A program made the translations under genes and the position numbers. This document shows, in pieces, positions 4,975 to 53,999 of a DNA stretch of 64,000 bases. The notes beneath the pieces are model-generated. The model was not told where the DNA came from. It saw only the letters and a list, made by a program, of their open reading frames with translations, and ran no database searches. Position 1 is the stretch's first letter. Every line of letters starts with the position of its first letter. Source of the stretch: Patescibacteria group bacterium (lineage in GTDB: Bacteria > Patescibacteriota > Patescibacteriia > JAHJFT01); the NCBI GenBank assembly GCA_028710985.1, contig JAQTTB010000001.1:19280-83279 (forward strand), in the 5' to 3' direction.

Positions 4975-7071
4975 ATGCTCGTCACCCGCACAACCTATCT
5001 CATTACAATTGCCATCCTGATAGTACTGGAGGCCGTCTTCCAGCTATTGTGGCCCAGCCCGCTCTTCGGACTCCTGATATTTGCCGCCGGGCTCGGTCTG
5101 ATCGGGCTGGTTATCGGCGCGCGCCTCCTTCCGAACTGGCGCCGCGCCGAACAGGTGCTTTGGGGCGCAATGTTTGTTTTTTCAATGATTGCGATCGCGG
5201 TCGCGATTTTTTATTATTTCTGGTCCATGAATCCCTTGGCCCTCTCCCTCGCCTGGCTTCCGCCCGCGGTTGCCGGATTCTTTTCTCTGCCAACGCCGAT
5301 CATGATCAATGACGAAGAAAAGAAAAATTCTATTCTTGTAAAAATTCTTTTGGCCGCGCTTTTTATTATCATCACCGCCATCGTCCTCAAGACCGCCGAC
5401 CTGCTCTGGGATTCCGGCACGCTGGAAGCAATCCGCTCGCCATGGACCGTTGTTCCGAAAAACTTTTTTATTCTTTTTTATCTCGCCACTGCCGCCGCTC
5501 TTATCTTTCTCGCGAAATCCAAATCAACAAAATTCGCCTGGCTTACTGCCGGCGCTCTGACGTTCCTGTTTCTGGGCATCAATCTTTTTATTTACAAAAT
5601 CGGCTACGGCTTTGACCCGTTCATCCATCAGGCCACGGAAAAATACCTAGCCGAACACGGCACTATCACTCCAAAGCCGTTCTATTACATCGGCCAATAT
5701 TCATGGGTTGTGTTTTTAAATTACTTTACCCATCTCGGCATCAATCTGCTCGATAAGCTTCTCCTGCCCATCCTCGCAGCCGCCGCGCTGCCGGCCGCGG
5801 TCTATACCGGCCTGCGTCGGGGATTCGGTCTCGCGGAAAGCAAAAGCCGGCTCGCCGCGCTCCTCATCCTTCTCATTCCCCTCTCCTCAATGATCGCGAC
5901 CACGCCGCAGGGGCTCGCCAATCTTTTTACCCTGATAATCATTTTTCTTTCGCTCGCCCATCTCCGTTCCAAAACCCCGCCGCTCATACTTCTCGTTGTT
6001 CTTGCGGCCGCGACCGTGTTCATCCATCCGCTTTCCGGCATTCCGACCGCCATCTATCTCACCCTGATTGTAATAATTAAAATTAAAAAATCAAAAATCC
6101 GGATTCCGCTCGTTGCCGCGGCCGCGGGTTTAGGCGCCATTGCCCTACCCCTGCTTTTTATTTTGAATTCCCTGCTCTCCGGCACGGCGGTTGAAGCCAC
6201 TACCGCGATCCTCCAAAGTCCGGCCGTACTCTTTAGTAATCTCCAATTGCCGGCGTTTTATACCGCGAGCCACTTTTCAAGTATTTTGGATTTTATCTAC
6301 ATCTACGGATACAATCTCGCCTGGATTATTCCGCTCCTTGCCATACTTGCCATTATTTTTATCGCCCGCAAAAAAATTCCGTACTGGTGGCTCGCGCTCG
6401 TGATGTTTGCCATACTGCTGGTCAACTATTTTTTCTTACAAAATGCGGTTGAATTTTCTTTTCTTATTTCCTACGAGCGCGGCGCCTATGCCGAGCGCGT
6501 GCTTGCGCTCGCGCAATTTTTTCTATATCCGTTTTTCATTCTCGGCGTAATCGCCTGGGTTGGCCGGGCCTGGCGCGGACCGTGGGCCGTACGCGCGGTT
6601 ATTATTCTCTTTCTCGCCGCCTGCCTTAGCGCCTCCCTCTATCTCTCCTACCCGCGGCAAGACGCCCTGGAAATCTCAAAGGGCATTAATGTTTCAAAAA
6701 GCGATTTGGCCGCCGTGCAATGGGTTGAACGCGACGCACCGAATGATGAGTTCATCGCGCTCGCGAATCAAACTGTGGCCGCCGCCGCTTTGCATGAATT
6801 TGGATTTAAAAAATATTTTGGCGACAAATTCTACTATCCCATCCCGACCGGCGGCGAACTCTACCAGTATTATCTCAAAATGTCATATGAATCACCCTCG
6901 GCCGTAACCATGCGCCAGGCAATGGACTTGGTCGGAGTAAATTACGGATATTTTATCATCAACGATTATTGGTGGAATTCGGAAAAAATAATTGAAGATG
7001 CTAAACTCCAGGCCGGCTCGTGGCAGGAGATTGACGAAGGGAAAATTTATATTTTCAAATATAAAAAATAA
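4975..7071 (+). CDS. polytopic membrane protein, GT-C-like (YfhO/GtrC/PMT-like architecture: about 500 aa of TM helices plus a C-terminal soluble domain)
   Basis: 698-aa ORF with more than 12 predicted hydrophobic helices, then a roughly 190-aa hydrophilic C-terminal domain containing NDYWWN. No homology search was possible. The call rests on architecture and on context beside GT2/GtrA genes. Confidence 0.5.
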   Translation: MLVTRTTYLITIAILIVLEAVFQLLWPSPLFGLLIFAAGLGLIGLVIGARLLPNWRRAEQVLWGAMFVFSMIAIAVAIFYYFWSMNPLALSLAWLPPAVAGFFSLPTPIMINDEEKKNSILVKILLAALFIIITAIVLKTADLLWDSGTLEAIRSPWTVVPKNFFILFYLATAAALIFLAKSKSTKFAWLTAGALTFLFLGINLFIYKIGYGFDPFIHQATEKYLAEHGTITPKPFYYIGQYSWVVFLNYFTHLGINLLDKLLLPILAAAALPAAVYTGLRRGFGLAESKSRLAALLILLIPLSSMIATTPQGLANLFTLIIIFLSLAHLRSKTPPLILLVVLAAATVFIHPLSGIPTAIYLTLIVIIKIKKSKIRIPLVAAAAGLGAIALPLLFILNSLLSGTAVEATTAILQSPAVLFSNLQLPAFYTASHFSSILDFIYIYGYNLAWIIPLLAILAIIFIARKKIPYWWLALVMFAILLVNYFFLQNAVEFSFLISYERGAYAERVLALAQFFLYPFFILGVIAWVGRAWRGPWAVRAVIILFLAACLSASLYLSYPRQDALEISKGINVSKSDLAAVQWVERDAPNDEFIALANQTVAAAALHEFGFKKYFGDKFYYPIPTGGELYQYYLKMSYESPSAVTMRQAMDLVGVNYGYFIINDYWWNSEKIIEDAKLQAGSWQEIDEGKIYIFKYKK

Positions 7072-43416: not shown

Positions 43417-45660
43417 TTATTGCCCCGCCTTCGCTTCTTTCTCGTCAATCATTTTCAGAAACTCATCCGTATCCGCGGATATTGAGGGATCCAACTGTTT
43501 GGCAATATTCGCGTACAACCGCGCGAGCTCATACTCCCCGACTTCAAAATATGCCGCCGCAATACCGGCATATAACCGCGGATCGTTTTCATCAATATTG
43601 TCAATCGCAAAATTATAAAGTTCAATCACCCTCGGCATATTGCCGGCTTTAGCATTAAGTTCAACCATCGCCGCCACTTCCGGAAGATTTACCGGATGTC
43701 CGCCGATTGATGCCGATTTTTCAAATGCCTCAAGTGCTTTATCTTCCCACTCGGCCTCATAGTATGCAATACCTAAATTCCACCATGACTCCGTGACATT
43801 GGGATCGAGGTTCACTGTCTCCAGATAATACTGGACAGCCTCATCGGTGCGGCCAAGATTCAAGAGCGCCTTACCGCGCACAAAACGCAACTGCTGACGA
43901 TCGGGAGAATACCTTAGCGCCTCATCAATGTCCGCGAGCGCCTGTTCATGGTGCGTCGGATCAATCTTACCAAGCTCGAGCTGAATCAAGCTCATGAGAT
44001 AATAATTATATATATTCATGGGATGAAGCGGCACAGTTGCCTTTAGCGCATCGTATGATCGCTCAAGATACTCAGCGAGCTCATCGCTTGGCATTTGCAT
44101 TGAGCGGCTAATTTGCGCCATCTCTCGGCTATAGTAAAGAGGAACCAAATCCGGATATTGGTTTGAGATAGCCATGCCTTTTTCAAATGCTGCGGCCGAA
44201 CCTTTATAATCCCCTGCCTGTGACGCAATCACTCCGCTCCGCACCCAGGTGGAAGCAAACGCGGTCCGAAAAGTAAATAAATACAAAACCGCAAACGAAA
44301 AAATTATCAAGACCGCGAGCCACGCTCCGGCAACGGCTGGAGTATTGATAAACAATCTTCCCTCTTTTTTCGGTTCGGTTGTCTCGCTCTGCCACCAGGC
44401 CAGGCAGAAATAAAACATAATCAATGCATTCGGCTGGTCAAAGATAAAAAGATTTTGCACGAAATATCCGATCAGAATTCCAATTGAGCCGCAATAAATA
44501 TGGGTATCGATTTTACCGCCCTTGAAGGCTTTGGTGAGCTGAATGATTATGAGAGCGAATAAGGCGAGATATGCCGCCGTACCGACCACGCCCGTATTAT
44601 TCAGCATATCCATCATCTGGTTATGCGCATGGTCAAACCATGTTTCGTAGAACGAAAACTCCAGTGACTTTGGATTGTAGTATTTATTGAAAGTATAAAA
44701 ATAATTTTCCGGACCCCAACCAAAAACCGGACGCTCCAAGAATCCCTTCCACGCGATTTCCCAAGCAATAAAGCGCGTCGCCGCCGTGCCACCGGTTAAC
44801 GAAATATCTCGGAAGCGATTGAGGCCGGGAACCTGCGCGGTCCAGGCCTGATCTTTAATCAGCCAAAATCCAGCCGACGCAAGGATTATTGCCAAAAATA
44901 TACCCGCGGAAATTATGCGGATCTTTTTATTATTTTTAAGTATTGCGTAAAGCGCGAGATACACGAGCCCGGCGAGAAAAACTCCAACCATTGCGCCGCG
45001 TGTTTCGGCGAAAAGAAAAGCCAAGAACTGTATTGCGAGCATGGCTCCCCACATTGCCTTGGTTGACCACCGCACGGCTTTTTGCAGAAGAACGAGCGTA
45101 ATGAACATAGTGAAAATCAAATACGCAGCCAAGAAAATCGGATTATTCATAAACGCGCCGGTACGAGCGCCGGTTTGCAGCACCAATTCCGGCGCCACGC
45201 GCTGGATAAAAGCGACAAACGACAGCGCCACGCTCACACCCACATTGAAAATTAAAACTTTTTTCCATTCGCGCCAGCCGCGGAAAACCGAAATTGCCAT
45301 AAAATAAAACAGGAGATAATGGAGAAGCGGCCAAAAACCGGTCATACGTTCGTGATAACTCCAGAAGCTGCGATTCGAATCAACGCCAAAAATCACGGCT
45401 AAAAAAAGTCCGATGAAATACGCCGCAAGCCCGTACATAATAAGCGACCGCCGCGGCCGGTATTCCGGCTTGCGCGCGAGAAGATATATATACCACGGCA
45501 ACGCGCTCATGAGCACGATCATAAGATAGACCGTCTTGCCAAAAATATACGGGTAAACCGTCCATGGCAAAAAAATAAACGGCATCACGAGAGCCGCATA
45601 TACGCTAATTTTTACCCACCAATATGCGATGCGGTCCATTGTTTCAAGATTGTTATTCAT
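43417..45660 (-). CDS. O-antigen ligase (Wzy_C) family membrane protein with C-terminal TPR repeats, a candidate O-oligosaccharyltransferase (PglL/WsaB-like)
   Basis: About 12 TM helices with a large extracytoplasmic loop, typical of Wzy_C. The C-terminal roughly 250 aa contain TPR-like repeats (AYYEAEWEDKALEAFEKS, GRTDEAVQYYLETVNLDP). Confidence 0.65.
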   Translation of the reverse strand: MNNNLETMDRIAYWWVKISVYAALVMPFIFLPWTVYPYIFGKTVYLMIVLMSALPWYIYLLARKPEYRPRRSLIMYGLAAYFIGLFLAVIFGVDSNRSFWSYHERMTGFWPLLHYLLFYFMAISVFRGWREWKKVLIFNVGVSVALSFVAFIQRVAPELVLQTGARTGAFMNNPIFLAAYLIFTMFITLVLLQKAVRWSTKAMWGAMLAIQFLAFLFAETRGAMVGVFLAGLVYLALYAILKNNKKIRIISAGIFLAIILASAGFWLIKDQAWTAQVPGLNRFRDISLTGGTAATRFIAWEIAWKGFLERPVFGWGPENYFYTFNKYYNPKSLEFSFYETWFDHAHNQMMDMLNNTGVVGTAAYLALFALIIIQLTKAFKGGKIDTHIYCGSIGILIGYFVQNLFIFDQPNALIMFYFCLAWWQSETTEPKKEGRLFINTPAVAGAWLAVLIIFSFAVLYLFTFRTAFASTWVRSGVIASQAGDYKGSAAAFEKGMAISNQYPDLVPLYYSREMAQISRSMQMPSDELAEYLERSYDALKATVPLHPMNIYNYYLMSLIQLELGKIDPTHHEQALADIDEALRYSPDRQQLRFVRGKALLNLGRTDEAVQYYLETVNLDPNVTESWWNLGIAYYEAEWEDKALEAFEKSASIGGHPVNLPEVAAMVELNAKAGNMPRVIELYNFAIDNIDENDPRLYAGIAAAYFEVGEYELARLYANIAKQLDPSISADTDEFLKMIDEKEAKAGQ

Positions 45661-45661
45661 A

Positions 45662-47620
45662 TTATTTTATTTCAACGGCATTAATATTGTCAAAAACGCC
45701 ACTGATAAAGCGCAGATTAATTTTATTATTATAAATTTCCGCGATGGCGATTCTCACCTCTCCGACAATATAGTCATAAAATGCTTTCAAGTCAAACTGA
45801 TTCGCCTGCGTCGCCCAGTTTGCGCTGCGGAGGAACGCGCCATTCCGATCGAATGATTTTATATATATATTTCCGTCTGTTTTATAAGTAACCAGTATCT
45901 CTTCTTCTTCGCCCGTATCCAAATTTTGCGTCGCAACGAATATTGGCCCCGTGATTTTCTCTGCCGCTTGAAAATTTGAAACCAAGACGCCACTCTTCCT
46001 AAATATCTTAATATGCAAAACACCGGCATCAATAAATCCCACGATTATTTCATCCGTGTCATCGGCATCAATATCTCCAGCCGTGACCGTAACGCCGCCG
46101 CGAAAACCAGAAGTATACGCCATAAAATTACCCTGAATTTCCCCTCTTTCATTAAACACTAGTATATGCGGACCGCCGCCCGGACCCGGCGCGGTGATAA
46201 TTTCATCGTTCACCGTCCGGCTGTCCACATTTCCGACGGCGATATTCACGCCACCGCGGAAAAGCGAATTATACGCAAAAAATTGTCCGTACAATTTCCC
46301 TGTCTCGCTAAAAATACGCACCTGCGGACCGCCGCCCGGACCCGCGCCGACCACAATTTCTTTTTGACCGTCATTATTTACGTCGCCGCTCTGAGCCGTG
46401 AACCCCTTTTTGAAACTATCCGGAAACACCGCGAAGCTATCTTTGACTTCCCCGCCGCTCCCAAGCTCACGGACAACCGGCGTAAAACCAAGCGGCGCAC
46501 CGATTACAAGCGATGAACCGCTCTTTGCCGCTTCAAGCGCCAACTCAAGCGCAGCGCGCGCATCCACGCGCGTTCCCAAGCCTCCGGCAAAATCCGGATT
46601 GATCCCGTCAATTATCACGCCGCTTTTTACCAAAATTTCATTGATTTCACGAGCCGAGAGCCCGGGCGCGATTGATTTCACGAGTGCGGACACGCCGGAA
46701 ACAATCGGCGCCGCAAACGAAGTGCCCGACCAATCGTCATCATAGAATGTATCAAAATCCGCAATTGCCGAGTTATAAACACGCGCGCTCCATATATCCA
46801 TGCCCGGTGCCGAAACATCAACGCAGGCTTTGCCAAAATTTGAAAATTTCGCTTTTTGATCCAACGTGTCGGTTGCCGCGACTCCAAGTACGTATATTTC
46901 ATTCTCATATTGATCAATGCACACCGGAAATTCATCGTACATATCCAAGTTCGAGCCGCCCGATTCGTCCGGCGTATTGCCGGCCGCCGCCACTACTACT
47001 ACTCCCGCTTCCCAGGCGCGGCGCACCGCAGTTGACATATCCTCGCTAAAATTAAAACCTACAAAACTCAAATTAATCACATCCGCACCATTTCGAATGG
47101 CGTAATAAATCGCTTTTGCCACATTGTCCGAGAATCCGTTACCCGTGGCATCGAGCACCTGAAGCGGCATTATCTTGCTCTCCCAGGTGATTCCGGCCAT
47201 GCCGTTCCGATTATTCCCTTCGGCTGCGATGATGCTCGCCACCGCCGTGCCATGGCTAATTCCCTCTTCCGCATATCCGTTGGAAAAATTCGGCAATATA
47301 TTTCCGTTATTATCCGAGAAATTCCATCCATTCACATCATCAATATAATCATTCTTATCATCATCGATTCCGTTTGCCGGAATTTCATCTTCATTGATCC
47401 AAGCATTGCCATCCAATTCCGGATGCGAAATATCCACGGCCGTATCAATCACTGCGACAATCACCTTCGGACTGCCGGTCGAAATATCCCAGGCGCGTTC
47501 GGCATCAATCTGACGCAAATACCACTGACGCGAAAAATCCGTATCGTTTGGGGTGAAAGCCTGCGCGCCTTGAACCGCAACGAATACAAAAATTATTGTG
47601 CAGAATATAAACTTTTTCAC
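45662..47620 (-). CDS. S8 family serine peptidase (subtilase) with signal peptide and C-terminal FG-GAP/VCBS-like repeats
   Basis: Catalytic triad contexts VIDTAVD, HGTAVASIIAA and GTSFAAPIVSG. Repeated DxDxDG...GGGPxxxxF modules. Confidence 0.85.
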   Translation of the reverse strand: MKKFIFCTIIFVFVAVQGAQAFTPNDTDFSRQWYLRQIDAERAWDISTGSPKVIVAVIDTAVDISHPELDGNAWINEDEIPANGIDDDKNDYIDDVNGWNFSDNNGNILPNFSNGYAEEGISHGTAVASIIAAEGNNRNGMAGITWESKIMPLQVLDATGNGFSDNVAKAIYYAIRNGADVINLSFVGFNFSEDMSTAVRRAWEAGVVVVAAAGNTPDESGGSNLDMYDEFPVCIDQYENEIYVLGVAATDTLDQKAKFSNFGKACVDVSAPGMDIWSARVYNSAIADFDTFYDDDWSGTSFAAPIVSGVSALVKSIAPGLSAREINEILVKSGVIIDGINPDFAGGLGTRVDARAALELALEAAKSGSSLVIGAPLGFTPVVRELGSGGEVKDSFAVFPDSFKKGFTAQSGDVNNDGQKEIVVGAGPGGGPQVRIFSETGKLYGQFFAYNSLFRGGVNIAVGNVDSRTVNDEIITAPGPGGGPHILVFNERGEIQGNFMAYTSGFRGGVTVTAGDIDADDTDEIIVGFIDAGVLHIKIFRKSGVLVSNFQAAEKITGPIFVATQNLDTGEEEEILVTYKTDGNIYIKSFDRNGAFLRSANWATQANQFDLKAFYDYIVGEVRIAIAEIYNNKINLRFISGVFDNINAVEIK

Positions 47621-47701
47621 AGGCTAAAAATTCATAAGTTATACGGATATGATACCATTTTTGCGCAAAAAATACACACTCATGCCATCCATCCCCAACC
47701 T

Positions 47702-47739
47702 AAATCCCGCCCCCGGGCGTCCCCAGGGGCGGGATTTTT
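47702..47739. other. GC-rich stem-loop AAATCCCGCCCC-N12-GGGGCGGGATTTTT between the surface-protein gene and the S8 peptidase gene
   Basis: 12-bp perfect stem. The T-run lies on the plus side only. It could be an attenuator or an mRNA-stabilising hairpin. Confidence 0.4.
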
Positions 47740-50700: not shown

Positions 50701-51557
50701 GTATTAAGAATGACATTGCCGTCCGAGCTCGCGGTCACAGCGACCTTAATAAGCTGCACGCTTGACGAACCCTGGGCGACAGTTGCGCCCGCCGGGGTGT
50801 CAGAGGCCAAGGCCACGGCAAGACCGGTGCCTGTGCCGGAAACGCCGGCTACAAGATCCGTAATGCCCGCTTCACCGCCGGTAACCGCGGTTCCGTCCGC
50901 ATAAGTTACATCGGCCGCGACTGGGCTAATTACGAAACGCCATTGGAACATGTTGGCATCAAATGCCGCCTCGTTCGCAATTGCGCGCTTCTGACCATCC
51001 TGAATGTAGTAGACGGATGCACCAGAAGCATACTTAATCAAGCATCCATTCGGATGCACATAAGTGCTGATTGAGGTGCCGATTGAATAGTTGGTGAAGA
51101 ATGAATCCGGAACGTCAACTACCCAGCTGGCCCAATTTGTTCCCCAGAGTTTCTGGGCAACGGCCTCGGTCTCAACCCAATGCAAAACACCGCCGGTCGT
51201 CACGGCATAAACCTTGGGATCGGTGGTAATTTTGATTAGGAATGTACCTGGGCGGATTGTGATATTTCCGCCGATAGAGACTGCCGCGAGTTCCGCGTCA
51301 GTGATCTCTTTCAGGGTTGAGAAATCGGGGTACCATGAATAATAGGTGTTCTCGTTCGGGAAAACGTATCTCTTACCATCTGCTGCGTAATAATACACCG
51401 CCGGTTGGCTGGCCTTAATAAGGTCGCCTGCGGACAAGGTCGCTGCTTCCGCTGCCAAAGGCATTATGAAAGCCGCAAAACCGATTGACCACGCCATGGT
51501 GGTGATAACTACGCCAACGGTAAGGATCCTCTTTGAAATGCGTAGAACTTCAGTCAT
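47778..51557 (-). CDS. giant secreted cell-surface protein (1259 aa), Thr/Ser/Ala/Gly/Val-rich, a candidate S-layer or surface-layer glycoprotein
   Basis: Signal peptide ending AEAA. Low-complexity beta-rich repeats. GC content is about 55%, far above the neighbouring island. A long structured leader lies upstream. Confidence 0.7.
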   Translation of the reverse strand: MTEVLRISKRILTVGVVITTMAWSIGFAAFIMPLAAEAATLSAGDLIKASQPAVYYYAADGKRYVFPNENTYYSWYPDFSTLKEITDAELAAVSIGGNITIRPGTFLIKITTDPKVYAVTTGGVLHWVETEAVAQKLWGTNWASWVVDVPDSFFTNYSIGTSISTYVHPNGCLIKYASGASVYYIQDGQKRAIANEAAFDANMFQWRFVISPVAADVTYADGTAVTGGEAGITDLVAGVSGTGTGLAVALASDTPAGATVAQGSSSVQLIKVAVTASSDGNVILNTLTFHRLGVGTASDFTNVYLYEGSTRLTSGRSINTSSNEAQFNNLNLTITAGTTKYLTVRGDLSSTAIAADEHALELVATSKVGTTATVSGSFPIRGNTFTVGAQDAATLTVNEGSDPANVTVGSLAATISSFKLTAASADIKLNQISIAQAGTVVNSDVTNLKLYVGTELVAETATIVGDKINFILATPYLISNGTTKTLYVKADVVGKGGRSIITYLEYTTDVDATDNTYGWGAAVNIDDFDSGDSVTTNTEGGQLTIAYNGPATGTMPKAGQDQIFFQFGMTAAENTLEVRKISFTLAGINGDDYIDASTTDLFTDIKLVDTDSGEVVAGPTQLSSGSPACGEDATTCTWVVSDSFYVNAGTTKNLALKADVANNAWFNSDRQYVAKLNAFAADYVKNNATGEYLAVTQIVPNAVITGNTMTVKTSSLTVQLAATPVSDTYVKKTSDVASSGFVFTAGSQSAIKVTSVKVTGQGNVNGAGYTAAQLDDVITQLTLWDGTTQLGTAESPDATAGTATFDGLSYSIPAGETKTLVVKAILDSVATSGGTDDTFWVGIALETDISAEDADANSVTATDGDVTWSNPINNGPTIFQTVKNSGTLTIAAESNPSTDIVIAGKDAWTTFAQAKITSQYENISVDKIRLQRYSGGANSDFKYLAIQKDGVIVSSGTDVFPGSATATDITLSTPITVPADGSVTFQVVGKLNAIDAGATSGNNPKLAVEYNVTTGEWDANYTNSYNVKGTGAMSGERVYAAASAVLAGNPMVIRKTKLTFAKQALASSSLANGTIELYKTKVTADSAGDAGVAKLTFEFTKSGAFTVDTLKWFQDGTDISDLVTITDNLGNTVEGATDASGTIFISYTSGTEQSISGSGHIFTLKGTVGGAGSSESLNVTIKTGSSTIYTYHLNAAAVGTVRGPNLDATGVVGGEVAAYLVWSDKAAIPHNAQLDTLSTGDWTDEYLVKDLTENVVLTF

Positions 51558-51782
51558 AAATAATTTATATCCTTTTGAATTTAATTCTTATCACGCAAGC
51601 GGCCATTGGCCCCGACCTTTTAGCCTGCGCGTTAATTAACTCTGGTACAAGTTCCGACGCCCCAACATAAAGTTGGCGGTCGGAATCCCGACTTCCGCCT
51701 GCGGCGGAATGTCGGGACATCAGCCCATACCCCGGAAACGGCTTCCATAAAAACCGCCTTCGGGGTATTTCCGATGATTAAT
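51558..51782 (-). promoter_or_regulatory. 225-nt structured 5' leader/intergenic region upstream of the surface-protein gene
   Basis: Contains CCCGAC(A)TTCCGCC-gcag-GGCGGAAGTCGGG and a CCCCGAAGGCGG/CCGTTTCCGGGG stem. Confidence 0.45.
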
Positions 51783-52991
51783 TTAATTCGTTACCGCTTT
51801 TGTCGTGGTTGCGGCTCCAGCCACTGCTGGCGTAGATGAAGTCTGAATTACGGGAATGATTGGGTCAGTCGATGAAACCCCAACCGGTTCGGTTATAATC
51901 GGCGTCTCGCTTGCTTCACTCTGATTTTCGGCTCCAACCGCCGAAGCCAGGGTATTCACTTCTTTTACCGCCGCAATCGCCCCGACTAAATCATTATTTT
52001 CCAAAAGTTCCCGTGCCTCCACAACTTTTTCCGCCAGTTGATCGGCAGTCGCGGTTGATGCTCCCGTTACCCCGATAACTTCACCCGTGCCGCTCGCCGC
52101 ACCAGTAATCACCTCTCCGGTCGAAGACGCGGCCTCCGAACCCACCGGGGTAGAAATTACCTCCGCGGTACCCGAAGCGCTCGTTACTCCAACCAACGCT
52201 GCCGCGGCTTCGGCTCTTTCCAGCTTGCTCGTAATTTTTTCAATTACTTCTTCCTCGGTGATTCCTTCGGCCTGACCCTGGGCGTGTTTCTCTACGATGA
52301 CTTCAACGGCCTTAACTGCCGTTACCTCAACAACCGCTTTCGCTTCTTGGACATCATTCTTATTGACATCGGAAAGCTTGTCCATGGTTTCCTGCAATTT
52401 ATTTTCAAACTCTTCAGATTTTTCATCAACGATTTTCGCCACCTCAACCGCCTTCTTTGAAGAACTTTTTTGTTTAATTTCTTCCAGATCATCCTGAACT
52501 GTTTTCATGCCTTTTTTAAAATCCGCCATGGACTTGGTTAGCTTTTCTTCCTTCCTTATATCGGGTTTCTCAATCAACTTAGTCGCTTCTTCCAGCCGCC
52601 GTCCGGCAAAATCAATGCGCAGTTTTGTTTTAACTTCCCGGGCCGGCGAAAGGGTTATTTGCGCGCCTTCGGAAAATAATTTTACGCCGTAAAGCGCATC
52701 ACCCGGCAAGCTGCCAAAAGACGCACTCACTGTCGCGGTCCAGCTGCCAAATACCAGAAATACGATAACCATGGCTGCGACAACCGGACGAAACGCCTTA
52801 GACCAGCCGGTGCTTACATCCACTGCCAATGAAAAATTTTCAAGCAGACTGCCGGTTTTCTCCGCCGCCGGCGCGTCCTGTCTTGCGTGAGCAAGCATGC
52901 TTTCGCGCGTTGACAATACCCAAGCCTCACGCGCTTTGCCGCCCGCTTTCGTCTTACCGAGATTATTCAATTGTTCTACCAATTTATCCAT
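51783..52991 (-). CDS. membrane-spanning anti-sigma factor candidate (DUF5667-like extracytoplasmic domain, T/S-rich tail)
   Basis: Sits 9 nt downstream of the ECF sigma gene. One TM helix at about residues 68-90. Coiled-coil, Lys/Glu-rich middle region. Confidence 0.5.
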   Translation of the reverse strand: MDKLVEQLNNLGKTKAGGKAREAWVLSTRESMLAHARQDAPAAEKTGSLLENFSLAVDVSTGWSKAFRPVVAAMVIVFLVFGSWTATVSASFGSLPGDALYGVKLFSEGAQITLSPAREVKTKLRIDFAGRRLEEATKLIEKPDIRKEEKLTKSMADFKKGMKTVQDDLEEIKQKSSSKKAVEVAKIVDEKSEEFENKLQETMDKLSDVNKNDVQEAKAVVEVTAVKAVEVIVEKHAQGQAEGITEEEVIEKITSKLERAEAAAALVGVTSASGTAEVISTPVGSEAASSTGEVITGAASGTGEVIGVTGASTATADQLAEKVVEARELLENNDLVGAIAAVKEVNTLASAVGAENQSEASETPIITEPVGVSSTDPIIPVIQTSSTPAVAGAATTTKAVTN

Positions 52992-53000
52992 TTATCGGGT

Positions 53001-53546
53001 TTATTTATTGTCTTGCTGCTCCATAATTTCACGTAATGCCGCGAGCGAGCGGTGAAGCAGAACCCGCACATTGTTTCCGCTTTTCTGCAAAATACTCGCG
53101 ATTTCGCCAGCTGTCATATTATCCAGATACTTCATCACCACAATCTCGCGATACTCATCCTTTAGTTTATTCAGCGCACGGTAAATCCTCGCCAAGTCAG
53201 ACTGCTTCTCCAGTTCCGCCAGTCCAACGATGTCCACTTCTCCGGCCGTCTCTTCCATGAGCTGAATATCGCTCTTTCTCTGCCGATAATGGTCAATGAC
53301 CAAATTCCGCGCAATTGTGTAGAGTAGGGCTCCCACACTTTTCACCGGCTGGCTGCCTGCAAGATAATCCCAGGCTTTTAAAAAAACCTCTGAACTCAAG
53401 TCTTCAGCTTCTTGTTCCGAGGATACTTTAAAAAAAATAAATCTATATATCTTGGCGCCGTAATCATCATATAACTCTGCAAATGCCCCTGCGTCCTGCT
53501 TCGCCTTGATCTTATAGACCAGTATTTTTTCTTTGAATTTATTCAT
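53001..53546 (-). CDS. RNA polymerase sigma-70 factor, ECF subfamily
   Basis: Region 2 (YDDYGAKIYRFIFFKV...VFLKAW) and region 4 HTH (MTAGEIASILQKSGNNVRVLLHRSLAAL). Confidence 0.8.
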   Translation of the reverse strand: MNKFKEKILVYKIKAKQDAGAFAELYDDYGAKIYRFIFFKVSSEQEAEDLSSEVFLKAWDYLAGSQPVKSVGALLYTIARNLVIDHYRQRKSDIQLMEETAGEVDIVGLAELEKQSDLARIYRALNKLKDEYREIVVMKYLDNMTAGEIASILQKSGNNVRVLLHRSLAALREIMEQQDNK

Positions 53547-53638
53547 CTATATTGACGATAAGATGATACGAATGTTACACAATCCGCCTTCATTTGTAAA
53601 GTCTTTTAGTCTCAAATTCGGTTAAATCACCCGTTTTC

Positions 53639-53667
53639 TTGACAAACTTTCAAGCTGCACATATAAT
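53639..53667 (+). promoter_or_regulatory. perfect-consensus sigma70 promoter TTGACA-N17-TATAAT for the HTH gene, followed by the palindrome AAGTCTAaactagccTAGACTT around the predicted transcription start
   Basis: TTGACA at 53639..53644, a 17-nt spacer, and TATAAT at 53662..53667. The inverted repeat at 53669..53691 is operator-like. Confidence 0.6.
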
Positions 53668-53702
53668 AAGTCTAAACTAGCCTAGACTTTTAATATAAGC
53701 CC

Positions 53703-53999
53703 ATGTCTTCATCCATTCGCTTATCCGTATCCGAAGCCGCCCGGCTTTTTGGCATTAGTGAAAAAACCCTGCGCCGCGCCATCATTAATAAGGAAATCAA
53801 CTATATCGTGGTTGCCGGCCGGTACAAGCTAAATTTTGAAAGCCTGGTCAAGTGGTCCCAGCAAAAAACCACGGTGCGCCGCAAATCCGAAAAATACGGC
53901 ATCGACCAATTTGTGGATAAATGGCGCCTCTCCGCCACCCTCTACTCCCCCAACCCACCCGCCACGGAACAAGAGAACAATTCAACAATACAACAATAG
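53703..53999 (+). CDS. small helix-turn-helix DNA-binding protein (excisionase-family HTH)
   Basis: SVSEAARLFGISEKTLRRAIINKEINYIVVAGRYKLNFESLVKW matches the XIS/MerR-like HTH pattern. 98 aa. Confidence 0.6.
   Translation: MSSSIRLSVSEAARLFGISEKTLRRAIINKEINYIVVAGRYKLNFESLVKWSQQKTTVRRKSEKYGIDQFVDKWRLSATLYSPNPPATEQENNSTIQQ

Follow-up and report, generated by a model that had tools for sequence, protein, structure and literature searches.

A 64-kb stretch of Patescibacteria DNA (hereafter the window) carries on its minus strand the genes of an extracytoplasmic function (ECF) sigma factor, of a DUF5667 membrane protein that is its candidate anti-sigma factor and, beyond a 225-nucleotide (nt) leader (51558-51782), of a giant surface protein (Table 1). 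We found that these three genes, the leader and a divergent HTH_17 gene form a conserved cell-surface module of Patescibacteria. The leader holds H2, a small RNA motif that covaries strongly, has an invariant bulge of 9 nt and is not represented in Rfam, and a precisely spaced promoter suggests leaderless expression of the sigma factor. The module represents a concrete phylum-wide regulatory unit around the major surface protein of Patescibacteria, and it points to a likely role for DUF5667, that of an ECF anti-sigma sensor. Patescibacteria, also known as the candidate phyla radiation (CPR), make up much of bacterial diversity and rely on contact between their cell surface and their hosts, and no case of gene regulation characterised by experiment is known to us from this group. 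Targeted literature searches (DUF5667/PF18915, Patescibacteria S-layer and ECF, CPR sigma factors) yielded no papers on the module.

A previous, sequence-only reading of this DNA had given the minus-strand order as ECF sigma, DUF5667 membrane protein, leader, 1259-amino-acid (aa) protein, S8 protease and Wzy_C/TPR protein, and this order was matched by the open reading frames (ORFs) and by Pfam. The pairing of a sigma gene with a candidate anti-sigma gene, which it had also proposed, holds well beyond the window, since an adjacent same-strand ECF sigma gene was present at 83 of the 89 DUF5667 loci with enough upstream DNA. The contigs of DUF5667 homologs were all alike, with an opposite-strand HTH_17 gene, the sigma gene, the DUF5667 gene, a gap of ~185-210 nt and a protein of ~1180-1260 aa, and scans of genome and metagenome collections contributed 105 further loci. 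In tblastn comparisons, the four-gene order was present in Candidatus Magasanikbacteria, Uhrbacteria and unclassified Patescibacteria, with sigma identity falling to ~30% and surface-protein identity to 27-35%; the claimed linkage of the regulatory pair to the giant surface-protein gene is therefore kept across deep divergence within Patescibacteria. When the search was started from the surface protein instead, the same module was found in three of three arbitrary picks (L120-L122, 42-46% identity), in which Wzy_C lies downstream of the surface gene and S8 is absent. Outside this group, in Chloroflexota and other lineages, sigma-DUF5667 pairs occur with neither the HTH_17 gene nor a surface-protein homolog.

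The leader between the anti-sigma candidate and the surface gene had been described as structured, and RNA folding confirmed it. Its predicted free energy was -100 kcal/mol, compared with -67 +/- 4.7 kcal/mol for 200 dinucleotide shuffles (z = -7.08), none of which was as stable. The antisense strand folded at -76 kcal/mol (z = -4.6), which makes the sense strand 24 kcal/mol more stable. Leaders of relatives are as structured (z = -6.9 and -5.1), and alignment together with RNAalifold revealed three covarying hairpins, H1, H2 and H3, in those of close relatives. H3, which in relatives stands just upstream of the Shine-Dalgarno (SD) sequence, is missing from the leader in the window.

H2 went unnoticed in the sequence-only reading, and it is the leader element that is retained throughout the group. 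It consists of an outer helix P1 (8-14 bp; 9 bp in the window), a 5' bulge, a P2 hairpin of very variable length (12 to 45 nt) and a direct return into P1. The bulge is made up of 1-3 variable nucleotides followed by the invariant AAAGGUCG(A/G), of which AAAGGUCG occupies 51613-51620. Because MAFFT misaligned the variable P2 among 25 diverse H2 copies, the seed was limited to 10 sequences of equal architecture. In this seed, 98.6% of the cells were paired and 12 of the 15 pairs had changed on both sides, versus ~40% in slid controls. An alignment of 21 sequences gave 96.8% paired cells and compensatory changes at 13 of 14 pairs (slid controls, 35-53%), a pairing figure that is somewhat inflated by the fitting of this alignment to the covariance model.

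Two covariance models, R1 and R2, hit each locus once, in every case in the gap between the anti-sigma and surface genes and on the sense strand. In the window, H2 was the sole hit within 64 kb, and the three loci picked via the surface protein carried the element as well. No Rfam match was obtained for the window at gathering thresholds, and searching three leaders with E values of up to 10 allowed brought up chance-level hits only (E >= 0.8; Rfam 15). H2 appears to be an undescribed small RNA motif. It is taken as an RNA rather than a DNA element, because it contains many G-U pairs and because of the greater stability of the sense strand.

Immediately 5' of H2 lies an A/U-rich single-stranded box, and similar boxes (GTTAAn, TAAAAT, TATAAA) stand 0-3 nt ahead of P1 at many loci. 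Since the outermost P1 pairs covary, the box must be transcribed, and it is more likely an RNA feature than a -10 element. Downstream of H2, no conserved complementary partner for the bulge was detected (5.57 observed versus 5.44 for shuffles). A pseudoknot partner in that region was rejected accordingly, and the result suggests that the bulge is recognised by a trans-acting factor.

Both of the strong stems named in the sequence-only reading exist, and they differ in standing. The first, CCCCGAAGGCGG/CCGTTTCCGGGG, belongs to H1, which is kept with compensatory changes in relatives, whereas the second, CCCGACATTCCGCC/GGCGGAAGTCGGG, lies within a genome-specific insertion of two extra hairpins. 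The insertion was considered as a repeated or mobile element and rejected as such, being unique in the window and among the loci. It produces a 38-codon ORF starting near 51748, which relatives do not have. H1 was likewise rejected as an intrinsic terminator, as it has no U-tract and no minus-strand terminator was called in the leader. At nearly all loci, the stop codon of the anti-sigma gene has a strong hairpin behind it, and the strongest hairpin upstream of H2 is followed by at least 5 U within 8 nt at only 3 of 28 loci.

At the other end of the regulatory pair, a TGTAAY-N16-CGTC-N7-ATG arrangement is invariant in an alignment of sigma upstream regions, with CGTC ending 7 nt before the sigma ATG. 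The strict GTAAY-N16-CGTC pattern occurs exactly once per locus, and its sole site in the window is the one before the sigma gene. Across 1.03 Mb, 63 sites were counted against 17 expected, and 33 of the 63 have an ATG exactly 7 nt downstream. The motif is kept at sigma genes of most Patescibacteria lineages and also occurs in Chloroflexota, there with a longer 5' untranslated region (UTR). These data led us to predict that the site is the autoregulatory promoter of the sigma gene. No SD sequence is present in front of that gene, and this absence, together with the fixed 7-nt spacing, implies that the sigma mRNA is leaderless or nearly so.

Two further settings of the motif support it as the cognate promoter of the family. 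In one Patescibacteria clade (L065, L066, L068, L076, L077, L081, L090, L104 and L108), it is located between the sigma and DUF5667 genes, not before sigma; at L066, the single locus of that clade inspected in this respect, the sigma gene has a sigma-70-type promoter. In the non-Patescibacteria locus L097 (5302-10602), one strand has four copies of GTAAC-N16-CGTC. One of them is at 6676, and the other three stand ahead of a sigma-DUF5667 pair, an ORF of 131 aa and an OEP plus HlyD/CusB-like metal-efflux operon; the locus looks like a small ECF regulon legible from sequence. In the window, a sigma-70-like promoter overlaps the ECF site and is kept, as TT(T/G)ACA-N17-TAATAT, in the close clade only; it is a possible basal promoter.

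The sigma factor itself contains Sigma70_r2 (residues 25-91) and Sigma70 r4_2 (119-171) domains, scores 87 bits against the ECF superfamily model TIGR02937 (cut-off, 42.9) and has SigW as its best solved relative (5wuq, E = 1.6e-19), with SigL and SigE structures also matched. Its best equivalog is the BldN family (TIGR02952). Since the score of 112 bits is far under the cut-off of 206, it is not a BldN ortholog.

The neighbouring protein was correctly recognised in the sequence-only reading as a DUF5667 protein (PF18915, residues 93-206, 44.6 bits versus a cut-off of 27), and its gene starts 9 nt past the sigma stop codon. An AlphaFold2 (AF2) model built on a 12-sequence alignment, with a mean predicted local distance difference test (pLDDT) score of 65, has N-terminal helices at residues 2-13 and 22-45, a transmembrane (TM) helix at 63-91 and an ectodomain at 100-361. 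The ectodomain is confidently all-helical from 100 to 266; beyond this, a helical hairpin separates a disordered linker from a tail that is also disordered. The modelled layout, in which a TM helix stands between a short N-terminus in the cytoplasm and an extracytoplasmic domain, is that of a single-pass membrane anti-sigma factor, and the N-terminal helices match a conserved pattern, LxxQLKxL...W...NRxxLL. The cytoplasmic N-terminus gave no Pfam match to known anti-sigma domains (zf-HC2, RskA and the like), its profile search against the PDB returned no anti-sigma factor, and residues 1-66 hold no Cys/His motif, the HxxxCxxC of the ZAS subclass being missing. Membership in the class I anti-sigma factors (ASD/ZAS) was rejected on the lack of a sequence-recognisable N-terminal domain. 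A Foldseek search of the model against the PDB found generic or designed helical repeats only. Because of its membrane architecture, as modelled, and its near-universal pairing with an ECF sigma gene, we reasoned that the DUF5667 protein is likely the cognate anti-sigma factor, and it would bind the sigma factor encoded beside it.

The sequence-only reading had also seen a likeness in composition between the T/S/A/G-rich tail of this protein and the surface protein. The likeness is real in this genome, where the combined T, S, A and G content is 0.67 and 0.49 in the linker and tail segments and 0.43 in the mature surface protein. It is not conserved, since the same region is D/E-rich (0.36-0.45) in relatives, the T/S/A/G richness being specific to this genome. 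The disordered tail, variable in composition, is closed by a conserved C-terminal SST[ED]..[IV] ... TTT[DE]E[IV]I (51783-51920, minus strand), which could be a sorting or interaction signal.

How the surface gene is transcribed was approached through the signals in its leader. The sequence-only reading had looked to 51558-51782 for an ECF promoter (AAC-N16-17-CGT); a regular-expression search found none there, and the motif stands before the sigma gene instead. A position weight matrix (PWM) built from 23 sigma promoters, which themselves score at least 14 bits with a median of 31.5, did not rise above shuffle level in 45 of the 46 leaders between anti-sigma and surface genes. Neither a consistent sigma-70-type promoter (>=9/12) nor a conserved -35 element was detected upstream of H2 at 28 loci. 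Canonical promoters do exist elsewhere in the genome, namely TTGACA-17-TATAAT at the HTH_17 gene and TGgTATCAT ahead of S8. With no promoter recognisable in front of it, the surface gene is most likely reached by read-through from the sigma promoter(s).

Our best model, which we give about an even chance of being correct, is that the autoregulated sigma promoter serves all three genes in one transcript and that the surface mRNA is then processed or stabilised at H2. The autoregulated ECF sigma gene would be transcribed from GTAAC-N16-CGTC as a leaderless mRNA, with the overlapping sigma-70-like promoter aiding transcription in this clade, and the DUF5667 anti-sigma-type protein would be encoded next on the same transcript. 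RNA polymerase starting at the sigma promoter(s) would read through H1 into the surface gene, and the leader would then uncouple surface-gene expression from that of the regulators. In this scheme, H1 would cap the upstream RNA, the A/U-rich box would be the likely entry site of an endonuclease, and H2, placed where the surface mRNA begins or close to that point, would act as a stabiliser and as a docking site for a trans-acting factor or RNase.

Co-transcription, processing and a bulge-binding factor are what we infer, and several points weigh against this model. The first two are deduced from the absence of signals, and promoters and terminators of Patescibacteria may deviate from the consensus used in the scans. 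It would be unusual for a very abundant surface protein to be driven solely via an anti-sigma-gated promoter. Distant loci score weakly with the covariance models (12-21 bits at nine loci with filters off) or fall below threshold, and H2 at such loci rests on regular-expression matching and constrained folding. Finally, the A/T-rich box just 5' of H2 in the window could be read as a -10 element.

That box leads to the explanation that competes best, in which the surface gene has a non-canonical promoter of its own, between H1 and H2 or in the 3' end of the anti-sigma gene. In that case, the upstream transcript would end at H1, H2 would be the 5'-terminal stabilising stem-loop of an independent, constitutive mRNA, and the sigma pair would either be tied to the surface gene by neighbourhood alone or regulate it indirectly. 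Strong dedicated promoters are usual for S-layer genes (PMC3666127). The A/T-rich box takes GTTAAT, TAAAAT and TATAAT-like forms 0-6 nt upstream of P1 at many loci, a TATAAT at L025 ends exactly 6 nt before P1, and the strong hairpin behind the anti-sigma stop codon is nearly universal. However, the box abuts P1 in most loci, and a start 6-7 nt downstream would remove outer P1 pairs that covary. The scans for a -35 element and for >=9/12 matches were negative, as described above, and the H1-type hairpins are without U-tails at 25 of 28 loci. We regard a promoter of this kind as possible, though rather unlikely.

The invariant single strand between covarying helices is typical of aptamers, and H2 could accordingly be a ligand- or ribosome-sensing translational element, either riboswitch-like or offering the AAAGG in its bulge as a standby or SD-like site, and would then act on translation of the surface protein and not on the stability of its mRNA. 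At many distant loci, no SD is evident close to the ATG, and the bulge AAAGG is the sole SD-like sequence. Such a role is nevertheless unlikely, as no expression platform is conserved, the distance from H2 to the ATG ranges from ~10 to ~190 nt, the bulge lacks the downstream partner discussed above, and H2 is very small for a ligand pocket.

Less likely again is that the adjacency is historical only and that the sigma/DUF5667 pair answers an unrelated envelope signal, controlling genes elsewhere. The pairs found without a surface-protein homolog in Chloroflexota and other lineages would fit this, as would the pair of L097, which apparently controls the metal-efflux operon. In Patescibacteria, however, the same-strand order and orientation are kept across lineages at surface-protein identities of 27-45%, and no second strict GTAAY-N16-CGTC site exists within the 64-kb window. 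The proposal that AAAGGTCGA is a DNA element, its GTC being the -10 of an ECF promoter with the GTTAAY box as -35 from which sigma drives the surface gene, can draw on the GTC that ECF -10 elements often contain and on a GTTAAY-GTCG distance of 15-19 nt at many loci, loosely like GTAAC-N17-GTC at the sigma gene, but it is very improbable. The spacing, which at the sigma gene is fixed at 17 nt, varies in the leaders and is 18-19 nt in most cases; leader PWM scores are at shuffle level, and P2 varies from 12 to 45 nt. In addition, P1 extends over both the putative spacer and the part that would be transcribed, and its covariation and G-U pairs can be understood only with the two arms in one RNA.

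Beyond co-transcription and processing, the module might form a homeostatic surface-layer circuit, in which the DUF5667 protein would hold the leaderless, autoregulated sigma and monitor the layer with its ectodomain and conserved tail, the surface gene would be co-transcribed, and H2 would bind a specific trans-acting regulator; an RNase, the HTH_17 protein and even the surface protein are candidates for this regulator. We put this forward as a tentative and rather doubtful extension. The envelope-stress-type control of the surface layer suggested in the sequence-only reading is plausible, and so, by analogy, is its idea of a stabilising 5' UTR on the surface mRNA. In Lactobacillus acidophilus and L. 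crispatus, secondary structure in the slpA leader gives the mRNA a long half-life (PMC3666127). The slpA leaders resemble the one in the window as long structured leaders before a dominant surface-protein gene; they differ in that they have no phylum-wide sequence-invariant bulge, are served by dedicated strong promoters and do not lie behind a sigma/anti-sigma pair.

Processed operons with differential mRNA stability are represented by B. subtilis cggR-gapA, which is cut by RNase Y, and by the 5' stem-loop of E. coli ompA. Common to these and the module are upstream regulator genes and an abundant downstream product. Cleavage in those systems falls in an A/U-rich single strand 5' of a protective stem-loop, an arrangement that the leader in the window resembles as far as its sequence goes. 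Another group of leader elements (ops/RfaH, the LoaP leader hairpin and EAR) brings elongation factors to long operons for surface structures; these elements, too, are short and conserved, and they precede long envelope or surface gene clusters. H2 has no sequence or Rfam similarity to them, and the conserved module is without a NusG paralog.

For the regulatory pair, SigW-RsiW and sigma-E-RseA (class I, regulated proteolysis) share an autoregulated AAC...CGT promoter, adjacent and nearly abutting sigma and anti-sigma genes, and an N-in single-pass anti-sigma factor with an extracytoplasmic sensor domain. Unlike them, the DUF5667 protein has no recognisable anti-sigma domain or HxxxCxxC, its ectodomain is all-helical DUF5667 with no informative structural match, and the sigma mRNA is apparently leaderless. 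The closest regulatory analogue is sigma-BldN/RsbN of Streptomyces, which serves the chaplin and rodlin sheath. Sigma-BldN governs secreted cell-coating proteins, and the rsbN anti-sigma gene is itself a sigma-BldN target (PMC6101532). Both systems combine an ECF sigma with a single-pass TM anti-sigma unlike the classical anti-sigma domains, and the sigma factor in the window scores best against the BldN-family model, though below its cut-off. The cytoplasmic part of RsbN has 117 aa and three helices, whereas that of the DUF5667 protein has ~65 aa and two conserved helices ahead of the TM helix; each system also differs at its target genes, with BldN promoters in front of the chaplin genes and no corresponding promoter at the surface gene.

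TABLE 1 Features of the module and its surroundings, with positions in the window
Feature	Position	Strand	Basis or remark
Wzy_C/TPR protein	43417..45660	-	Pfam
S8 protease	45662..47620	-	Pfam
Extended -10 TGgTATCAT ahead of S8	47649..47657	-	promoter-like, from sequence
GC-rich hairpin AAAUCCCGCCCC...GGGGCGGGAUUU, 12 bp, after surface gene	47702..47737	-	read by eye
Surface protein, secreted or anchored, 1259 aa	47778..51557	-	AF2, Foldseek
Shine-Dalgarno-like AAAGGA	51570..51575	-	12 nt before surface-gene ATG; kept in close relatives
H2, conserved leader RNA motif	51591..51632	-	covariance model 45 bits, E ~1e-8
A/U-rich single-stranded box GUUAAUUA	51633..51640	-	immediately 5' of H2
Two extra hairpins including CCCGACATTCCGCC/GGCGGAAGTCGGG	51652..51717	-	absent from all aligned relatives
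Hairpin H1, holding CCCCGAAGGCGG/CCGTTTCCGGGG	51718..51776	-	directly 3' of anti-sigma stop; no U-tract
DUF5667 single-pass membrane protein, 402 aa, anti-sigma candidate	51783..52991	-	Pfam PF18915, AF2
ECF (group 4) sigma factor, 181 aa	53001..53546	-	Pfam, TIGR02937, PDB relatives
ECF-type promoter TGTAAC-N16-CGTC (predicted)	53554..53579	-	invariant in alignment of sigma upstream regions
Overlapping sigma-70-like promoter TTTACA-N17-TAACAT	53572..53600	-	score 9/12
HTH_17 gene promoter TTGACA-N17-TATAAT	53639..53667	+	score 12/12
Palindrome AAGTCTAGGCTAGTTTAGACTT	53668..53689	+	directly after HTH_17 promoter; kept in relatives
HTH_17/excisionase-family DNA-binding gene, divergent	53703..53999	+	TIGR01764

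The surface protein gave no sequence match in Pfam, NCBIfam or the PDB, and these searches revealed no known S-layer anchoring domain (SLH, CWB2 and the like). Its homologs number at least 1146, and those that are named by a source are all called 'hypothetical protein'. In an AF2 model of residues 1-450 (pLDDT 78.5), an N-terminal hydrophobic helix (3-26) is followed by a conserved alpha/beta domain and beta-sandwich modules. Foldseek matched the model to cohesin, BslA, the CLIPPER adhesin and PrgB Ig-like domains with E values of 2e-4 to 2e-3. The protein is thus predicted to be secreted, beta-rich and modular, as S-layer proteins are, and the fold matches are consistent with a surface protein, though no proof of an S-layer. 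The alpha/beta domain (residues ~40-235; 50850-51450, minus strand) is its most conserved part, at 52-84% identity versus 30-68% for the whole protein. It has weak Foldseek matches to the EccB repeat domain and may be a cell-wall anchoring module.

The HTH_17 gene is the best-conserved gene of the module, with 55-82% identity where sigma has 30-70%. Its product is likely an autorepressor and is possibly a third regulator of the module.

On the other side of the surface gene, the GC-rich hairpin is likely the end of the surface-gene transcription unit; terminator-like hits overlapping it were called on the plus strand only (47718-47731 and 47719-47735). This hairpin and the promoter-like -10 of S8 suggest that S8 and Wzy_C probably form a separate transcription unit. 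The extension of the proposed control to processing by S8, as the sequence-only reading had it, is weak, since S8 lies after the GC-rich hairpin, has its own promoter-like site and is missing in L120-L122.

Three minor observations concern the wider neighbourhood. Two loci (L006, 15327-18182, and L007, 8895-11750) have an extra 951-aa gene with no Pfam match between the surface gene and S8. In the nine loci with the ECF motif between the sigma and DUF5667 genes, the similarity of the large downstream proteins to the surface protein begins only at about residue 245. Within the window, 16000-41300 has a GC content of 0.35-0.40, versus ~0.48-0.52 in the flanks, and is one long minus-strand cluster of genes for GT4 glycosyltransferases, methyltransferases, an AsnB-like amidotransferase, a radical SAM/SPASM protein and an NAD epimerase/dehydratase. 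This glycan-synthesis island lies beside the module of the surface protein and was possibly gained by horizontal transfer.

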